NCBI GenBank assembly: GCA_951406725.2
Contig: OX597836.1
Span: forward strand, 744,001 to 808,000
Reading direction: 5' to 3'
Length of the DNA stretch: 64,000 nucleotides
Origin: Octopus vulgaris
Taxonomy: Eukaryota
Shown here: piece after piece, positions 10,395 through 64,000 of the stretch
Layout: the number at the start of each line of letters is the position of its first letter
Position numbering within the stretch: the stretch's first letter is position 1
The notes under the pieces: model-generated
Told to the model about the DNA's origin: nothing
Seen by the model: the letters and a program-made list of their open reading frames with translations, nothing else
Databases searched by the model: none
Position numbers and translations under genes: made by a program

Positions 10395-10825
10395 TGACTG
10401 GTTAACCATGTATCTTCTCTACAGCAACACACCTGTTACTGGCCTCAGTCTTGATCACTCTCTCTCTCTCTTTCACCAGGTAAGCATGTATTTCCTCTAT
10501 GGTAAGACACTTGTTTCTGTCCCTCTGTTACACTCTAACCTTCCATCATCTGGTACAAGACCACCTCCTCCAAGGCCCCGCTCCTCTCAAAGGATTTTTG
10601 TCTTGCAAGTTACTTGATGACCTTGCCAGTGCTGGTGTCACATAAAAAGCCAACAGTCCACATTGTAAAGTGGTTGGCATTTGGAAGGGAATCCAGCTGT
10701 AAAACCCGTACCAAAACAGACAGTAAGCATGATGTAGTCTTCTGCCTAGCCAGTTCCTTTCAAACCGTCCAACCCATGCCAACATGGAAAGCGGAGGTTA
10801 GATGACGATGTGGATGATAATGATT
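10395..10825 (+). mobile_element. RTE 3' UTR fragment
   Basis: gtggttggcatttggaagggaatccagctgtaaaac...gatgacgatg tail. Confidence 0.8.
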
Positions 10826-23792: not shown

Positions 23793-23865
23793 TCCTACCT
23801 GTCTGTTGTTGAAATATTGCAAAATTCATTCTGAAACTTACCTGCAAGGAAAATAGAAAATATAT
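23793..23865 (-). promoter_or_regulatory. Candidate recursive splice site with 43-nt RS-exon
   Basis: Minus strand attttctattttccttgcAG|GTAAGTtt (junction 23842/23841), then CAG|GTAGGA at 23799/23798. Confidence 0.65.
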
Positions 23866-40454: not shown

Positions 40455-41410
40455 ATCATCACTGTCATCATCAGCATTTAACATCTGTTGTCCATGCTGG
40501 TATGACTTGGACAGTTTGACCACGGTTGGCAAGCTAGGGAGCTTCACCAAACTCTAGTCTGTTTTGGCATGGCTCAAACAGCTGGCTGCCCTTCCTAATG
40601 CCAAGCACTTTACATAGTGCACTTTTATGTGGAACCACACAGATGCTTCATTGTGGCACTGCTATGAGTGCTTTACACCACCAGAGGGCCCAGGCTTAAA
40701 ACTTCTGCTATGGAGCATGAATCTTCCTGAGTACAGCAAGGTGTTAGGTATCTGGTGCCTTGCTGTTCAAGAAGACCTGTGTTCCTGTCCTGTCCTTTGT
40801 CATCTTGCTTGAATGGTTCAGCATCATGAGTCGTTCTTCAGTACTTCATCCTAAGTCTTCCTGGATCTCCCACTTCCACATGTTCCATCTACTTTGAAAG
40901 GTCAGCACTTCTTTATGGAGTTGTTGGCATCCATCCACATTACATGACCAAACCAGTGCAGTCTTTTCTCTTGCATACAGCAACTAATTCTTCTTATTCC
41001 TAACTTCTCTCTCAAAACACTGGCACTCTGTTGAACATGTACACCCATATAACACATCCAGCAGATCATACCAGTCTTATTCCTTACTAACCTTTGCATG
41101 CCCACTGCATTCAGGGCCCACATGTCACTATTATGTAGAATTGTTGTCTCTATACATGCATCATACAATCTTCCTTTCACTTGGAAAGAGAAACCTTTCA
41201 TGGCCAACAGAGGTAACAGCTCTCTGAATTTCCTCCATCCTGTCCTTATTCTAGCTATTACACTCTCCATGCATCCTCCCCAATAACTAATTTCATCTCC
41301 TAGGTAGCAGAAATTATCTGCTACCCCTAATGAGCCACCAGGGCATTTGAGAAGAACAATTTTCTGTGTCTTTAAAGTTTTTATGGATCCTGTGCACCTT
41401 TCACATATAA
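40455..41410 (-). mobile_element. RTE LINE, 5'-truncated
   Basis: ORF 40902-41429: FCYLGD...RIRTGWRKFRELLPLL...RLHWFGHV. Confidence 0.9.
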
Positions 41411-42148
41411 AAACTAGATATACAGACATATCTATATGTTTATATATCTATATACACACACACGCAGATATATATGTGTGTGTGTGTGCGTGTGTGTGTG
41501 TGCATGTATGTGTGTGTGTGTGTGCATAGTGCTTGGTGTTAAGAAGGGCATCCAGCTGTAAAAACATTGTTAAAAGAGATAGTGAAGCCTGGTGCAGTCT
41601 TCTGCCTAGCTACATCCTGTCAAGCTATCCAACCCATACCAACATGGAAAACAGACGTTAAATGATGATGATGATGATGATATATAATTTGTACATAATA
41701 TGTAATTATATATGTTTACTACTAATGTACACAGCATATTATAAAATATAACAGTCATGAGAAAACTAACAACAAACACTGCCAACTTTGTACAAATAAA
41801 TCCTACCACATTCTAACATTCATGGACCAAATTCTAAACAAAAACTCTGAACTAGTATCTTCATGCAAGTACAAAATCTTAAAAACATTAAAACATTTCA
41901 AACCAGTAACCTTCTCCAATAGTTAAACTTGTTGCTATCACACCAACTCCCCTCCATCCATCTACACCCATAAACCATCCCAATATGAAGTTAAACAAAC
42001 ACATTTATAGCTTTACACTTTACCACAAAAACAAGTACTCTGGAAATTATCTAAAAGTGTCCCTATTTCTGATTAAAATCCCCACAAAAGACTTTCTAAT
42101 ATGAGTACTCAAACCTACATATGCACACATTATATATATATATATACA

Positions 42149-48842: not shown

Positions 48843-50040
48843 CATCATCATCATCGTTTAACGTCCGCTTTCCATGCTTGCATGGGTTGGACGATTTTGA
48901 CTGAGGGCTGGCGAACCAGATGGCTGCACCAGGCTCCAATCTTGATTTGGCAGAGTTTCTACAGCTGGATGCCCTTCCTAACGCCAACCACTCTGAGAGT
49001 GTAGTGGGTGCTTTTTACATGCCACCGGCATGGGGGCCAGTCAGGTGGTACTGGCAATGATCTCACTCGAATCCTTTTACACATGCCACCAGCACAGGTG
49101 CCAGTAAGGCGACGTTGGTAACGATCACGCTCAAATGGTGCCCTTTTACATGCCACTGGCACAGAAGCCAGTTGGCTGCTCTGGCAACGATCACGCTCAG
49201 ATGGTGCTCTTGGCACCCTACTAGCACGGACACAAGTGCCAGTAAGGTGACGCTGGTAATGATCACGCTCAAATGGTGCCCTTTAAGTGCCACTGGCACG
49301 GGAGCCGGTTAGCCACTCTGTCAATGATCACACTCGTATGGTGCTCTTTGCCCCATGCTAGCACGGATGCCAATCATCGAATTTGATTTTCATTTCGATT
49401 TTGCTTTTGATTGATTTCACTTGCCTCAACAGGTCTTCGCAAGCAGAGTTTTAGTGTCCAAAGAAGGAAAAGGTACGCATAAGTGGGCTCGTTACACCCC
49501 TGGTATAGGCCACAGGTTATAGTCTCACTTGGCTTGCCGGGTCTTCTCAAGCACAGCATATTTCCAAAGGTCTCAGTCATTAGTCATTGCCTCAGTGAGG
49601 CCTAATGTTCGAATGTCTTGCTTCACCACTTCATCCAAGGTCTTCCTGGGTCTACCTCTTCCACAGGTTCCCTCAACCGCTTGGGTGTGGCACTTTTTCA
49701 CACAGCTGTCCTCATCCATTCTTGCTACATGACCATACCAGCACAGTCGTCTCTCTTGCACACCACATCTGATGTTTCTTCGGTCCAACATTTCTCTCAA
49801 GGTACCTACACTCTGTTGAGTATGCACACTGACATTACACTTCCATCGGATCATACTGGCTTTATTCCTTGTGAACTTACACATGTCCTCAGCAGTGACA
49901 GCCCATGTTTCACTGCCATGTAGCATGGCTGTTCGTACACAAGTGTCATACAGTCTAACTTTTACTCTGAGCAAGAGGCCCTTTGTCGCCAGCAGAGGTA
50001 AGAGCTCTCTGAACTTTGCCCAAGCTATTCTTATTCTACA
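48843..50040 (-). mobile_element. Young RTE LINE, 5'-truncated
   Basis: Open frame RIRIAWAKFRELLPLL...RLCWYGHVARM...GRGRPRKT; 3' UTR tandem units; (GAT)n tail. Confidence 0.92.
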
Positions 50041-50327
50041 GACAATATTTTTTCCCCTGATGTTCATGTAGTGTATGCAGATGACATGAACTAACTTAGT
50101 AAATAAATCCACTCTTGTTTGTTCAGACATGTACTTTATATAAAGATACTTTCCAAATACTTTCAAAGTACAGATTCCAAGGTAAGTGAGTAAAATATAA
50201 ATGAGTAACAAAGATGTATAAGTGTCAATTCATTACGGCCATTTCAAACAACTCCTGATTAATTGATTAATTGCTTGAAGAAATTTTACACACACACACA
50301 CACACACACGCGCAATTAAAGAGTGCA

Positions 50328-53749: not shown

Positions 53750-56700
53750 TATTCCTCACAGGTAGATTGTGAACAGTGAAGAACCAAGAAACCCTGCAAC
53801 AGAAGCCAGGCCCCTTTCTTCTGTAGATTCCAAAACATTAAGATAGCAACTTTAAATGTAGACACAATGAAAAGAAGGTCTAATGAGATTGAGATTGCAG
53901 AGATGTTGGAGCAGAGACAAGATGGAAGGGATCTGCAACAAAACTCCTCGTGAGTAGGAGACAGCAGTTTAAACTTTTCAGAGTCAGTGATGGTAATGGA
54001 GAGGTTGGGTAGGTATACTGTTAGCTGAGAGATTGACAAATAAAGTAATAGAGGTAGTCAGGGTATCATTATCATCATCACCATCATCGTTTAACGTCCA
54101 TTTCCTATGCTGGTATGGACTAGATGGTTTGACAGGACAATTGTCTGTTGTGGCATGGTTTCTATGGCTGGATGCCCTTCCTGACTCCAAGGGTAGGATA
54201 ATTAAATTAATATCAATTATTGGCAACACAACAGCAGCATTTATCTTGGCATACACCTCTCAGATAGGACTACCAGAAGAACAGAAAGACTGCTTCTATG
54301 AGACCCTTTTGCAGACTATCTCAGCGATGAGTGACAGGGACCTCATTATCAAAGATGGTGACTTCAATGGACATGTTGGTCAAGTCAATACATTGATAAC
54401 GTTCATGATGTACATGTCTATGGCTCAAGAAATGAAGTGGGTGTAATGCTTCTGGAGTTTTGTGATGCAATTGATCTAAGAATTTGCAAGACACTCTTTA
54501 AGAAACCATCTCTTCACTTCATAACCTACCAATCTGGCAAATTCATAAGTCAGATTACATTCTTGCCAGGAAATGGGACAGAAGGATCTTTATGAATATG
54601 ACAATCTTTCCTGGGGAAAAATATACTTTGCAACATGAGGGATTTCTGTATCAGAGCTAGGCAGACACAGACAAGGGTAACAATAATTTGAAGGAAAGTT
54701 TGGAAATCAAAGGATCCAGCAATCAGAAATAGGTGTAGAGAAATTCTGATGCTCATGACTGTAGGGGTGAATGTTTAGATACCAGTAACAAAGATGGTAA
54801 CTGGGAATTTCTATGAGTTAATGCAGATCTGAAACAAAGTCCCAGCCAAGCAAAAAGTAACATGATGGTAGATGATAAAGTTGATGATAAAGAGACTGGT
54901 TTGGAAAGACTGAAATGATGGGTACTTTGTTAAAGGTGAGGCAGAAAAGAAGAGATTTGCACATGTCCTGCAATGTGAGGATTAAAGGCAGGGAGTGGTC
55001 AGGATTGTGAGACAATGTGCAAGAGAGAACCAAGATGGCATTGGTGAAAAGTGTTTGGAATGATGACAGCAAGCTCACCATTGGTATGGAACAAAAGAAA
55101 CAGGCATGGAAGTGTTATTATGAAAGGTTGTTGAATATGAAGAATGCATGGGATAAGTAGGGATTACACATGCTGACCCAATAAAGGGACCGGTGATTTA
55201 AAGAAGAAATCATAAAGCAATCAAAGATATGAAGAAGTGGAAGCTGTGGGTCCACTGACAATAGTTGCAGAGATACTTAAAGTCTGGGGAAGTTGGATAC
55301 AAGACTACCATCCAGGTTGTTAATCAAGTCATTCATGAGGGTGTCATGCCTAACGACTGGTGTATCAGTATCATCATAACCTGCTACAAGGGTAAAGTGT
55401 TGCCGTAGAGAGAAGTAACTATAGGAAAATGAACTTCTAGATCAAGTTATGAAGGTCATGGAGAAAGACATTGCCCAGTTGATCCATTATAAAGTAGATC
55501 TAGATGAGATGCAGTTTAACTTTATTTCCAGAATAAGCACCACAAGTGCAATCTTCCTAGTGAGACAACTACAAGAGAAATACCTGGCTGAGAATAAACT
55601 GCTGTATCTAGCTTTCATTGATTTGGCGAACGCATTTAACAGGGTATTGTGTTCAGTAATCCTGTGGGCATCGAGAAAATAAGAAGTAGATGAGTAGCTT
55701 GTGTGGGCAGTTCAGGTTACATACAAGGATGCAGCAAGTGAAAGCTGGCAATGAATTTAGTGATAAATTTAACATCAAGTTTCACTCCTCAATCCTCTCG
55801 AATACATCGTAGTCCTACAAGCCAACAGAGAGGAGTTTAAGAATGGCTGTCCATGGAAATTCTTATGTGCTGATGACCAAGTTCTCATAACTGAATCAAT
55901 AGAAGAGTCAAAGAAGAAATTCCGGGCATGGAAGCTAAACCTGCAATTAAGAGACCTTAAAGTAAGCCTAGCAAAGACAAAGATTTTAGTAAACAGGAAA
56001 GAAGATAGGACTCTAACACCTTCGGGGAAAATGGCTTTGTTCAATGTGCAGAAAAGGAGTACGTATAAACTCAATATGCTGTACTCAATGTAAGCTATGT
56101 ACACACAAAAGATGTGGTGGAATCACTGGTAGATTATAAGAGAATGTAAACTTCATGTACTGTAGGTACACTGGAGCCATTCTTACACACACACTGGAAA
56201 TTGAGTCTCTTAAATGCCCAGACAGAACACTAGCAGTAGTTGATAGCTTTTGTTACCTAGGAGATGTAATTTAGCAAGGGAGGAGGTTGCCCTGAAAGTA
56301 TTGTGGCCGTGAGAACTGGTTGGAGAAAGTTCAAGAGGCTGCTACCACTGCTAACAACAAATAACTTTTGTCTAAGGGTGAAGGGCAGATTGTATGGCCT
56401 TTATGTTAGAATTGCAATGCTGCATGGTAATGAGACATGGGCCTTGAATGTAGAGGATATGAGAAGACTGGAAAGAATGAAGTGAGCATGCTTTGTTGGG
56501 AGTGCAATGTGTGCATGAAGGAATTGGAAGAAAAATGCTGAGTGAAAAACTGGGCATTGGAATCAGTTATTGTGTGCAAGAAAGAAGAGTGTGTGGGTAT
56601 ATACACATGATGAATATGGATAAAGACAGTTGTATGAAGAAGCACTGATTGTTAAGTATGGCCAGAACTTGCAGAAGAGGGTGACTCAAGAAGACTTGGG

Positions 56701-57689: not shown

Positions 57690-57986
57690 GAGGCATCGCA
57701 GGGCTATTACTAAATATGGAGAATGACTGGGAGAGGAGCTTCCTAGTGTGAACACAATGGAGGGACAAAACAGTTTAGTTCATAGCAGAATGAGAGATAA
57801 AGGAATTAAGGTTATGATGTCAGGAGAAGCTCCTGGTCCAACAGAAATTACTACTGGTATTCTTAAAATACCAGGCAAAGAAGGATAAGGCTTAATCATT
57901 TATAAATAGTTAATCAGGTTGTACAGGAAAGTATCATACCCAACGACTGGTGTAGCAGCATCATAATAAACTGTTACAAGGGTAAA

Positions 57987-57988
<2 letters not shown>
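57690..57988 (+). mobile_element. RTE pre-RT fragment
   Basis: APGPTEI...PNDWCSSIIINCYKGKG. Confidence 0.8.
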
Positions 57989-58025
<37 letters not shown>

Positions 58026-58029
<4 letters not shown>

Positions 58030-59172
58030 GAAAACCTGGAAGGTTGGGAGTAGCAGGGAACTTTACCAGGTAGCCAAAAGGGAGACTGGGCGGCAGGTAT
58101 ACATAACCAAGGGCGAAGCGGAAAAGAAGAAGTTTGCCAATGTCCAGCGATGTGAGGACCAAAGAACTGAGGTATTTCGGATTGCTAGACAGTGTGTGAG
58201 AGAAAATAGTGATGTTACAGGAGAGAAATGTGTCCGCATGGATGATGGGGCACTTGCTTTTAATGATGGTGAAAAGAAAGAGGCTTGGAGAAGCCATTAT
58301 GAAAGACTGCTGAATGTGGAGAATGAATGGGAGGAGGAGAGCCTGCCAAATGTTGACCCAGTAGAGGGACCAGCTATCCGAATAGACAGCTCCCTTGTAG
58401 TTAAGGCAATTAAGGGTATGAAACCAGGTAAAGCTCCCGGCCCATCAGGATGTACTGCGGATGGATGAGGAGAGATGTATGAAGAAGTGCCACTCCCAAA
58501 CAGTTGAAGGTATCAGGGGAAGAGGTAGACCCAGGAAGACATGGGATGAGGTAGTCAAGCATGACCTCAGAGCGTTGGGCCCCACAGAGGCAATGACGAA
58601 GGACCAAGATCTCTGGAGATATGCTGTGACTGCAAAGACCCGGGCTGCTTCCTGCACCAGTCCCGCATAGCCCCTGCCCATTCAAAGTACCTTGGATTCC
58701 AGAACATCCCGCTGTGCTTGAGGAGACCTATTGAGTCAAGTACATGAACATCGAAATAAATATCAATGGAAATAGTAGTTGTGATACCTGTGCCGGTGGC
58801 ACATAAAAAGCACCATCTGAACGTGGCCAATGCCAGTGCCGCCTTGACTGGCTTCTGTACCGGTGGCACATAAAAAGCACCATCCGAACGTGGCCGATTC
58901 CAGCGCCGCCTTGACTGGCTTCCGTGCCGGTGGCATGTTAAAAGCACCAACCAATCGTGGCCGATGCCAGACTCCCCTGGTACCTGTGCCGGTGGCATGT
59001 AAAAAGCACCCACTACACTCACGGAGTGGTTGGCGTTAGGAAGGGCATCCAGCTGTAGAAACACTGCCAGATCAGACTGGAGCCTGGTGCAGGCCCTGGC
59101 TTCCCAGACCACGATTGAACCGTCCAAACCGTGCTAGTGCGGAAAATGGACGTTAAACGATGATGATGATGA
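58026..59172 (+). mobile_element. Young RTE with RT deleted internally
   Basis: ...KGMKPGKAPGPSG joined directly to VLRMDEERCMKKC...GRGRPRKTW; 3' UTR and tail. Confidence 0.9.
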
Positions 59173-62384: not shown

Positions 62385-63110
62385 ACCAGGTGATAAAAAT
62401 TACAGAAAGGATCATAGCTCAATTAATTAGAAAGTGAAGAAGCAGTGATGAGATGCAATTTGGTTTCATGCTAAGAAGAATCACTACCAATGCTGTCTTA
62501 CTGGTGTGGAAACTGCAAGAGAAGTACTTGGCCAAAAATAAACCTCTGCATTTAGCTTTAGTTGACATGGAGAAAGCCTTTGACAGGGACCCCCTTATCA
62601 GGTGAGCAATACGGAAGTTAGGGATAGATGGCTAATTGATGAAGCCTGTAAAACCCATGTACAGGGACACCATCAATTAGGTGAAAGTTGCCAATAAGTA
62701 TAGCAAGCAATATGGTGTTCAATTATGAATCCACCAGGTATGGAAGCAAGGTCTGGAATCAAAGAGCTTTAAAGTCAATTTAGCAAAGATCAAAATTCTA
62801 ATAAGTAGGAAAACAGACAAAATCACAGACCCCTTCAAGGAGATGGCTCTGCTCAATATGTAGAAAAGATGTTGGTAGAAACTCCATACAATGTATCCAG
62901 TGAAGGCTATGGACACATAAATGGTGTAGTGGTATCACTGGAAGATTAACAGAGAAAGTAGTCTTTACATGTGGCAGATGTGCAGGTCTGTTAAACACCA
63001 GAAATGTACAGAAACTAGACCCTTCAAATGTCTTGTGGCATCCTTAGAAGTAGAAGACAGTTTCTGCTACTTAGGTGACCAAATTAGCAGTGGTGGAGGT
63101 TGTTCCAAAA
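62385..63110 (+). mobile_element. RTE RT relic with internal deletion
   Basis: LQEKYLAKNKPLHLALVDMEKAFDR, CSICRKDVGRNSIQC...CGRC, FCYLGD. Confidence 0.88.
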
Positions 63111-63738
63111 GACCAAGTGTAATTGCAGCCTTAGTTTGTGACAGAACAAAACTTGAAGAGGAATAGAGAATTATATCTTTATGAAATAAAATTAACATAA
63201 AATCCCAATATTAAGTGAACATCAATTATTACCTTATATTGAAACGATTGTGAAGCTGAGATAAGTGAATGAATGAAATGTTCAGGTTAATTGCCTTTGT
63301 TTATCTTGTAGTGGGGAAATAAGTACTTGACCACATGATGTAAGCAACAGCTGCCCTTGAGAAATGCATTCCTTTTATTAGGCCACATTCATTAATATAT
63401 ATGATATAGTCCATTGGTAAACCATATAAGAGATATTTTCCATTAATACACATTTGAAGACGAAACATTCAGTGGTTTTTCCAATGACTGATTGAGGGTT
63501 ATGGTTACATTTATTCCTCAAAATATTTTAATTCATCATTGCTCTATTACATCATTGCAGACTAGGTTTTTGGTTTCTCTTGTAATATTTCTGGCAATAA
63601 TATCCATTGATTCTCTTTCAAGTCTTCCTTCAATGCATATTAAATTCAATTCCTTTTTTTTATAGTAATATAAGACATTGTCTGAAAGAGGTGTTAACTG
63701 CCACAAAGGAACAGAAAAGTACATTGAAAATATAACAA

Positions 63739-63825
63739 ATTTACCTACATACTGTTTTAAATGACAGGAATATGTTCTTGTTGATAAACTTACCTGCAAA
63801 TAAAAGAAGAAGAAAAAGAACATAA
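63739..63825 (-). promoter_or_regulatory. Candidate recursive splice site with 49-nt RS-exon
   Basis: Minus strand ttctttttcttcttcttttatttgcAG|GTAAGTtt (junction 63794/63793); no upstream AG until 63943; second donor TAG|GTAAAT at 63745/63744. Confidence 0.72.
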
Positions 63826-64000
63826 GTATTATTTGGTATCAATGTTTTTAGATAATCAAAAAAGATGATAATTTTAAAAACAGAAAAAAATTTACAGTAT
63901 GTATACATGGGCATATATATGTAGATACACAATTTCGAGTGACTTCACATAGACAATATACATAAACACATAGATAGGAATATGTATGCTGTATATATTT

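Follow-up and report, generated by a model that had tools for sequence, protein, structure and literature searches.

A probable recursive splice site in octopus couch potato, within its 308-kb first coding intron

The couch potato locus and the site RP3

The window analyzed here, a stretch of 64,000 nucleotides (C23:744001-808000) of the 2.8-Gb genome of Octopus vulgaris, lies within the gene encoding couch potato (cpo/RBPMS) and contains none of its coding exons. A scan of 200 kb on each side revealed a minus-strand exon at C23:602051 whose peptide was 100% identical to couch potato of Octopus sinensis, O. bimaculoides and Argonauta. Mapping of database isoforms back to the genome placed exon 1 at C23:971359-971252 and the start of the RRM exons at 663220, leaving between them a first coding intron of 308,030 nt on the minus strand (exon 1 donor C23:971252, RRM exon acceptor C23:663221). 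In the isoforms exon 1 was joined to the RRM exon either directly or via two small coding exons, and none of the database cpo isoforms carried an exon at the site described below. The corresponding features were as follows.

Window 1-64000, minus strand: part of the approximately 308-kb first coding intron of cpo/RBPMS (isoforms mapped back to the genome)
C23:740826-740794, minus strand, outside the window: optional in-frame coding exon of 33 nt (Octopus and Argonauta isoforms)
C23:694396-694358, minus strand, outside the window: optional in-frame coding exon of 39 nt (Octopus and Argonauta isoforms)

Several other features of the gene were observed. Alternative first coding exons are located inside the giant intron on the minus strand (C23:741397 and 679666, plus a near-match at 690040), the one at 690040 containing a stop where the O. 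bimaculoides isoform has Gln. Two mutually similar minus-strand exons of 51 nt (C23:647492-647442) and 54 nt (635588-635535) encode the same part of RRM1 and occur singly, together or not at all among the isoforms as well as in an oyster record, which is alternative splicing within the RNA-binding domain. Within the window, decayed retrotransposon-like fragments, by eye presumably of reverse transcriptase/endonuclease type, were noticeable at approximately 40900-41450, 49570-50230, 54000-54450, 55770-56100, 57970-58470 and 62500-63150.

The site under study, RP3, was read directly on the minus strand as an acceptor CAG (63796-63794) abutting a donor GTAAGT (63793-63788). The sequence bore out the initial annotation in its description of an almost pure pyrimidine tract of about 24 nt in front of CAG/GTAAGT, of a minus strand free of AG from 63797 to 63942, and of the candidate RS-exon donors CA/GTATGT and TAG/GTAAAT (+49). 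The elements of the site are listed below.

63788-63796, minus strand: ratchet point RP3, CAG plus GTAAGT (from the sequence; the match of a contig from run X13 ends at its AG)
63797-63820, minus strand: polypyrimidine tract, 22/24 pyrimidines, TT at -5/-6
63796-63942, minus strand: AG-free zone of 147 nt upstream of the acceptor (not rare by itself)
63822-63828, minus strand: TACTTAT as putative branch-point element (A at -30, 63823), proposed from the sequence
63745-63793, minus strand: predicted cryptic RS-exon of 49 nt, frame-shifting if included (41- and 45-nt versions with weaker donors possible)
63739-63744, minus strand: donor of the predicted RS-exon, TAG/GTAAAT, 2.6 bits
63752-63747 and 63748-63743, minus strand: weaker alternative donors GTATGT and GTAGGT

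Downstream of RP3, CA/GTATGT follows after 41 nt (63752), TAT/GTAGGT after 45 nt (63748) and TAG/GTAAAT after 49 nt, the last being the best-scoring second donor. Splice-site scoring, which the initial annotation had named as a check, gave 2.6 bits for this +49 donor and 8.1 bits for GAG/GTAAGT, the donor that would be regenerated by joining exon 1 to RP3; the weight matrix behind these values was built from generic frequencies and was not trained on octopus.

The nearest AG upstream of the acceptor was found at 63944-63943, so that 147 nt are free of this dinucleotide (146 without the C of CAG). While the zone itself was confirmed, the weight that had been placed on it as a mark of real 3' splice sites was not, because in this microsatellite-rich genome stretches of such length without AG occur often, which makes the zone weak evidence by itself. 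Runs of at least 146 nt numbered 148 per strand in 464 kb, most of them microsatellites, and on the sense strand of the intron 106 of the 16,684 gaps between AGs were at least this long, 9 of the 106 being devoid of microsatellites. The AG-free zones extended over 39-147 nt at the four sister sites in cpo and had a median of 55.5 nt at 60 motif sites genome-wide. The zone was consequently rejected as stand-alone evidence. Two other assignments for this position were discarded as well: the sole ORF of at least 100 aa across the site (63536-63838) had no Pfam match, and an Rfam search of the window for structured RNA returned no match. The idea of an acceptor for spliced-leader trans-splicing likewise found no support.

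AGGTRAG occurred 17 times in the window, and at least 16 of the 20 preceding positions were pyrimidines in three cases, namely RP3, a site on the same strand at 23842 and one on the plus strand at 10479.

Contigs reaching the RP3 acceptor

Four runs guessed to be RNA were available as contigs with one depth figure each and were mapped on a stretch of 2,000 nt around RP3 (L001), in which the AG of the acceptor occupies positions 1646-1645. One contig from run X13, derived from a near-identical relative (organism B), was 285 nt long with a depth of 8.1. Its letters 1-280 matched L001 1367-1646 with a single difference, the match ended at the A of the RP3 acceptor AG, and the five remaining letters did not fit the genome. 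The contig reaches 278 nt into the intron, past the downstream donors of RP3. Exon 1 of cpo ends in GGAAG-AG and thus has a G before the AG where the genome at RP3 has a C, for which reason an intermediate in which exon 1 is spliced to RP3 would break at exactly that base. The break is therefore a hint, not proof, that the RP3 acceptor was used and that the contig represents a spliced intermediate; a terminal error or a variant is possible instead. The contig concerns the use of the acceptor and not that of the rebuilt donor. Among the matches listed, the AG of RP3 was reached in one run of the four (X13) and in none of the other three.

The same listed matches included end-to-end matches of four other contigs unique to the stretch (X11-8, X13-15, X14-24 and X6-32), and they contained no joint at +41, +45 or +49, for which the partner exon would lie outside the stretch mapped. 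The +49 and +41 donors have contig ends no more than 3 nt away, at L001 1596 (run X11) and 1606 (run X6), with no loose end among the matches listed; no weight was placed on these ends. A sawtooth-like coverage step, with parts of L001 1055-1646 covered by 4/4 runs and 1647-2000, upstream of the acceptor, by 0/4 among the matches listed, was set aside, absence of contigs not being counted as evidence. Joints and loose ends at L001 236-956 originated from other copies of a repeat and were likewise discarded. Many unrelated contigs were stacked on window positions 62385-63105.

The orientation of the X13 contig also bears on the idea that GTAAGT acts purely as a donor, closing an alternative first exon or a long exon that is not annotated and ends in a pyrimidine-rich stretch. 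CAG/GTAAGT is a perfect donor, and alternative first exons of cpo are indeed present in this interval (C23:741397, 679666 and the near-match at 690040). However, the contig keeps the sequence downstream of the AG and departs upstream of it, which is the reverse of a donor junction, and the tract, the TT at -5/-6 and the AG exclusion are acceptor features that recur at five sites of the intron. We regard use as a donor only as scarcely credible.

A chain of five sites and its genome-wide counterparts

When the cpo intron was searched for YAG/GTRAG preceded by at least 15 pyrimidines in 20, five sites were detected on the sense strand and one on the antisense strand. All five are on the minus strand, at C23:896086, 856438, 807794 (RP3), 767842 (RP4) and 717003 (RP5), and they divide the intron into segments of 75.2, 39.6, 48.6, 40.0, 50.8 and 53.8 kb. 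In 60 local first-order resamplings a mean of 0.117 sites (maximum 1) was obtained, and the contrast with five is somewhat optimistic because the 15/20 cut-off was fixed after inspection of the data. With the same criteria, no minus-strand site was found outside the interval between exon 1 and the RRM exon in the 464 kb scanned. The initial annotation had spoken of an upstream ratchet point; the ratchet-point reading gained support from the intronic position, the sense strand, the chain of five and the contig break, while the site turned out to be the third of five and not simply an upstream one. A second member of the chain is located within the window, 39,952 nt downstream of RP3.

23836-23844, minus strand: ratchet point RP4, CAG/GTAAGT, with 16/20 pyrimidines, a 39-nt AG-free zone and TT at -5/-6 (from the sequence)
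23793-23841, minus strand: predicted 43-nt RS-exon of RP4 (23841-23799) with its donor CAG/GTAGGA (23798-23793, 5.8 bits)

The five sites share their architecture. TT was present at -5/-6 in 5/5, and second donors followed at +45, +38, +49, +43 and +42 nt with scores of 4.0, 6.6, 2.6, 5.8 and 7.5 bits, respectively, compared to 8.1 for the rebuilt donor. The second donor of RP3 is the weakest of the set and falls below the 3-bit cut applied genome-wide. If included, the RS-exons would introduce one early stop and three frame shifts, and one (RP5, 42 nt) would remain open in frame. Six-residue pieces of the five RS-exons were found in 0 of 138 protein records, which frame-shifted or degraded forms would escape. 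A relaxed scan of the 75-kb first segment yielded no further ratchet point with GTRAG; weak candidates at C23:963351 (CAG/GTAATT) and 897573 (CAG/GTATGT) were left out. Together with RP4, RP5 and the RRM exon, the optional exons of 33 and 39 nt form an alternating series with a spacing of 23-31 kb, and these exons may be stepping stones themselves.

These properties are relevant to the alternative that RP3 is an ordinary short cassette exon of 49, 45 or 41 nt starting with GTAAGT, a poison exon autoregulating cpo, in which case the acceptor would be real and the rebuilt donor unused. Poison exons are frequent in RNA-binding-protein genes, the X13 contig fits such an exon equally well, and two real small coding exons reside in the same intron. 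The 45-nt form is open in frame; inclusion of 49 or 41 nt shifts the frame, so that little follows from the lack of these two forms in protein records. On the other hand, five evenly spread exons that all start with GTAAGTT would be unexpected, the real small exons starting with TTAAGT and ACTGAA, every internal donor is weaker than the rebuilt one (2.6-7.5 versus 8.1 bits), and the lengths of 45, 38, 49, 43 and 42 nt follow no common frame logic. An ordinary cassette exon thus appears improbable, although the RS-exon could at times be included alongside recursive use.

To place the five sites among similar sequences, the motif was searched throughout the genome. Y12-N-CAG/GTAAGT occurred 89 times, compared to 102 for the three GTAA[A/C/T]T variants together and 16 for two variants lacking AG. 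The pattern Y8-TT-N-CAG/GTAAGT had 88 matches versus 17 for the one-base control GTAACT, an enrichment of about 5-fold (binomial p ~1e-12); a reversed-pattern control (3 and 8 matches) was set aside, the one-base controls being stricter. Among the 88 sites there were 15 pairs of neighbors no more than 500 kb apart, and 15/15 were on the same strand; uniform placement, a null that ignores gene clustering, would give 1.4 pairs.

A detailed set was formed by the first 60 of the 89 sites in contig order, none of them from cpo. TT was present at -5/-6 in 51/60, and a donor of at least 3 bits was found at +25 to +70 in 18/60, at +71 to +116 in 9/60 and in later windows in 19/360 (Fisher p 1.2e-7), so that 42/60 sites were without such a donor at +25 to +70. 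The strict patterns recovered one of the five cpo sites and missed RP3, which has an A at -8. Since only 1/5 was caught, the true number of sites probably exceeds the observed surplus of about 70 several-fold, although this is an extrapolation. Several of the 89, including C19:67439903 and C24:21727832, shared a tract ending CCCACAG/GTAAGT and similar downstream sequence. This group is probably a repeat family that slightly inflates the 89; its members have no TT at -5/-6 and fall outside the 88.

These data also allowed us to consider RP3 as a chance or vestigial motif that is not used in splicing. Seventeen matches persisted genome-wide for the composition-matched one-base control, long AG-free runs are common, and an antisense look-alike is present at window position 10479. 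That look-alike, however, has a CT-microsatellite tract and neither TT at -5/-6 nor a second donor, whereas a second donor is common to all five cpo sites, which were seen against an expectation of 0.117 on the sense strand. The genome-wide enrichment, the clustering by strand and the break of the contig at the AG argue in the same direction, and we consider a chance origin highly unlikely. As a separate observation, the 10479 sequence (plus strand, CAG/GTAAGC) resembles repeat-family copies at C23:828625 and 828775 and is not a cpo ratchet point.

A second chain was detected on C13 between 4.23 and 5.03 Mb, with five sites on the plus strand, zero on the minus strand and a spacing of 37-120 kb.

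C13:4468680, 4550881, 4648756, 4685587 and 4805416, plus strand: sites of the C13 chain (motif scan)

Each of these sites had a second donor at +45 to +55 and a TAATGT/TATGT/CATGT-like element before the tract. A crude exon scan recognized no coding exon between them. Further downstream, a same-strand exon candidate at 5017634 matched DUF7042 weakly, short of the curated cut-off. The reading AG/GTAAGTAC was common to all five C13 sites and occurred in 4/57 others, and two of the sites aligned over 99 nt at 72% with the motif included, which suggests either a cassette copied within the gene or a gene-specific constraint. All five cpo sites in turn read GTAAGTT, T at +7 being present in 18/60 genome-wide, and a stretch of 13 nt is common to RP3 and RP5. 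Among the 60 sites, the remaining same-strand pairs differed at +7/+8. Segmental duplication of the cpo sites was not supported by local blastn of 3-kb flanks, in which likeness was confined to about 40 nt around the motif. Comparison of the cpo RS-exons gave 0.9 with one another and 3.6 with those of C13. Because they are no more alike mutually than to the C13 RS-exons, and because their flanks are not duplicated, cassette copying is not supported for cpo.

Additional same-strand clusters were noted at C18:15812668-15938490, C23:40186293-40454878, C9:104955604-105622524 and C8:29499475-29592672, which are candidate recursive chains in other giant introns as judged from the motif. By eye, a GAATTT/GCATTT-like word was visible in most cpo and C13 RS-exons at about +10 to +30; it could reflect base composition or a shared silencer.

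Proposed splicing pathway and comparison with other animals

Taken together, RP3 is probably a recursive splice site, or ratchet point, through which the 308-kb cpo intron is removed stepwise. This reading is based on its position within an intron on the sense strand, its membership in a chain of five sites of the same architecture and the contig match that ends at its AG. The sequence displays four features of Drosophila ratchet points: the fused AG/GTAAGT, a sense position in a long intron, a tract with TT, and a weaker downstream donor.

According to the model developed for flies and vertebrates, a cryptic exon of 49 nt would be defined across by the RP3 acceptor and the +49 donor, which would activate the AG. 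Exon 1, ending in GAG and previously carried to RP2, would then be spliced to the AG of RP3 with release of a 48.6-kb lariat, and this join would rebuild GAG/GTAAGT, which at 8.1 bits would out-compete TAG/GTAAAT at 2.6 bits. The rebuilt donor would subsequently be spliced to RP4, 40.0 kb on, and the RS-exon would leave with that segment, so that no base of RP3 would be kept in the mRNA. In this manner the cpo intron would be removed in six pieces, from site to site during transcription, except that inclusion of the optional coding exons of 33 and 39 nt would split the last two pieces (50.8 and 53.8 kb). Use of the rebuilt donor, the order of the steps and constitutive use are modeled here on the work in flies.

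The known ratchet points of Drosophila (Ubx-RP, kuz-RP1/2, Bx-RP and those of luna, Ten-m and cpo) resemble RP3 in the fused AG/GTAAGT, in the strong tract that carries TT at -5/-6 and in the A at -30 that is the candidate branch point. In the fly, TT at -5/-6 is found in 196/197 ratchet points, and branch points peak at -30 (10.1101/006163), with a range of -36 to -21 as criterion. Both systems further share a cryptic exon that is closed by a weaker donor and measures about 50 nt, the length given for the fly RS-exon in PMC8605326, as well as the location in the first intron of a neural or developmental gene and the presence of several sites per intron, with five each in fly luna and Ten-m. 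Fly cpo itself undergoes recursive splicing at two ratchet points according to lariat evidence (10.1101/006163); in the accessible part of PMC6110457, 'cpo' was absent from 9 supplementary files. In contrast to these two, octopus cpo has five sites. The octopus intron is also larger, with 308 kb compared to 11-133 kb in the fly set, and its segments of 40-75 kb exceed those of flies, for which 10.1101/006163 gives 18 kb on average and 63.6 kb at most, and PMC6110457 typical values of 9-15 kb. Moreover, the fly sites were derived from junction, lariat and sawtooth data, the octopus sites from sequence and one contig.

Vertebrate RS-sites and RS-exons resemble the octopus sites in their very long introns and in RS-exon definition followed by donor competition, as outlined in the accessible parts of PMC8605326 and 10.1101/2024.12.11.627982. 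For mammals, nine fully suppressed recursive sites are noted as definitive in the accessible part of PMC8605326, compared to at least about 70 excess motif sites in octopus under the strict pattern. The recursive site listed for human RBPMS in the accessible part of PMC6110456 belongs to a 14-kb intron near the 3' end (chr8:30402141-30416403) and not to the first intron. A study of the lungfish with its 40-Gb genome likewise asks how expanded introns are removed and, in its accessible part, describes no shift to fixed recursive sites (10.1101/2024.12.11.627982), whereas in octopus the pattern suggests chains that are fixed, as in flies.

A wider scenario would be that the giant introns of octopus are removed genome-wide by fixed chains of the fly type, likely comprising hundreds of sites, the segments between them measuring 40-120 kb and thus being longer than in fly. 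The cpo chain would then go back to a recursive intron of the common ancestor of flies and molluscs and would have gained sites during growth of the intron, new ones arising when a cassette was copied within the gene. Such copying would explain the GTAAGTT shared by all five cpo sites and the GTAAGTAC shared by all five C13 sites. We put this scenario forward tentatively and consider it doubtful as a whole.

The animals for which PMC13149111 records recursive splicing are flies, mice and humans, and a search of the open-access literature, with subscription journals outside its scope, retrieved no report for octopus, cephalopods or molluscs. The mechanism is thus already known, and the mollusc lineage is one for which we found no published report. 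The five exact coordinates of the cpo chain can be checked cheaply in existing total-RNA or single-nucleus data. Since cpo is recursively spliced in flies too, the locus tests whether recursive splicing persisted in the same intron across protostomes or re-emerged with intron growth. If the ratchet-point reading is true, a mollusc would possess a fly-like system, which would carry fixed ratchet points into the third great branch of bilaterians and reveal how cephalopods process genes whose introns measure hundreds of kilobases.
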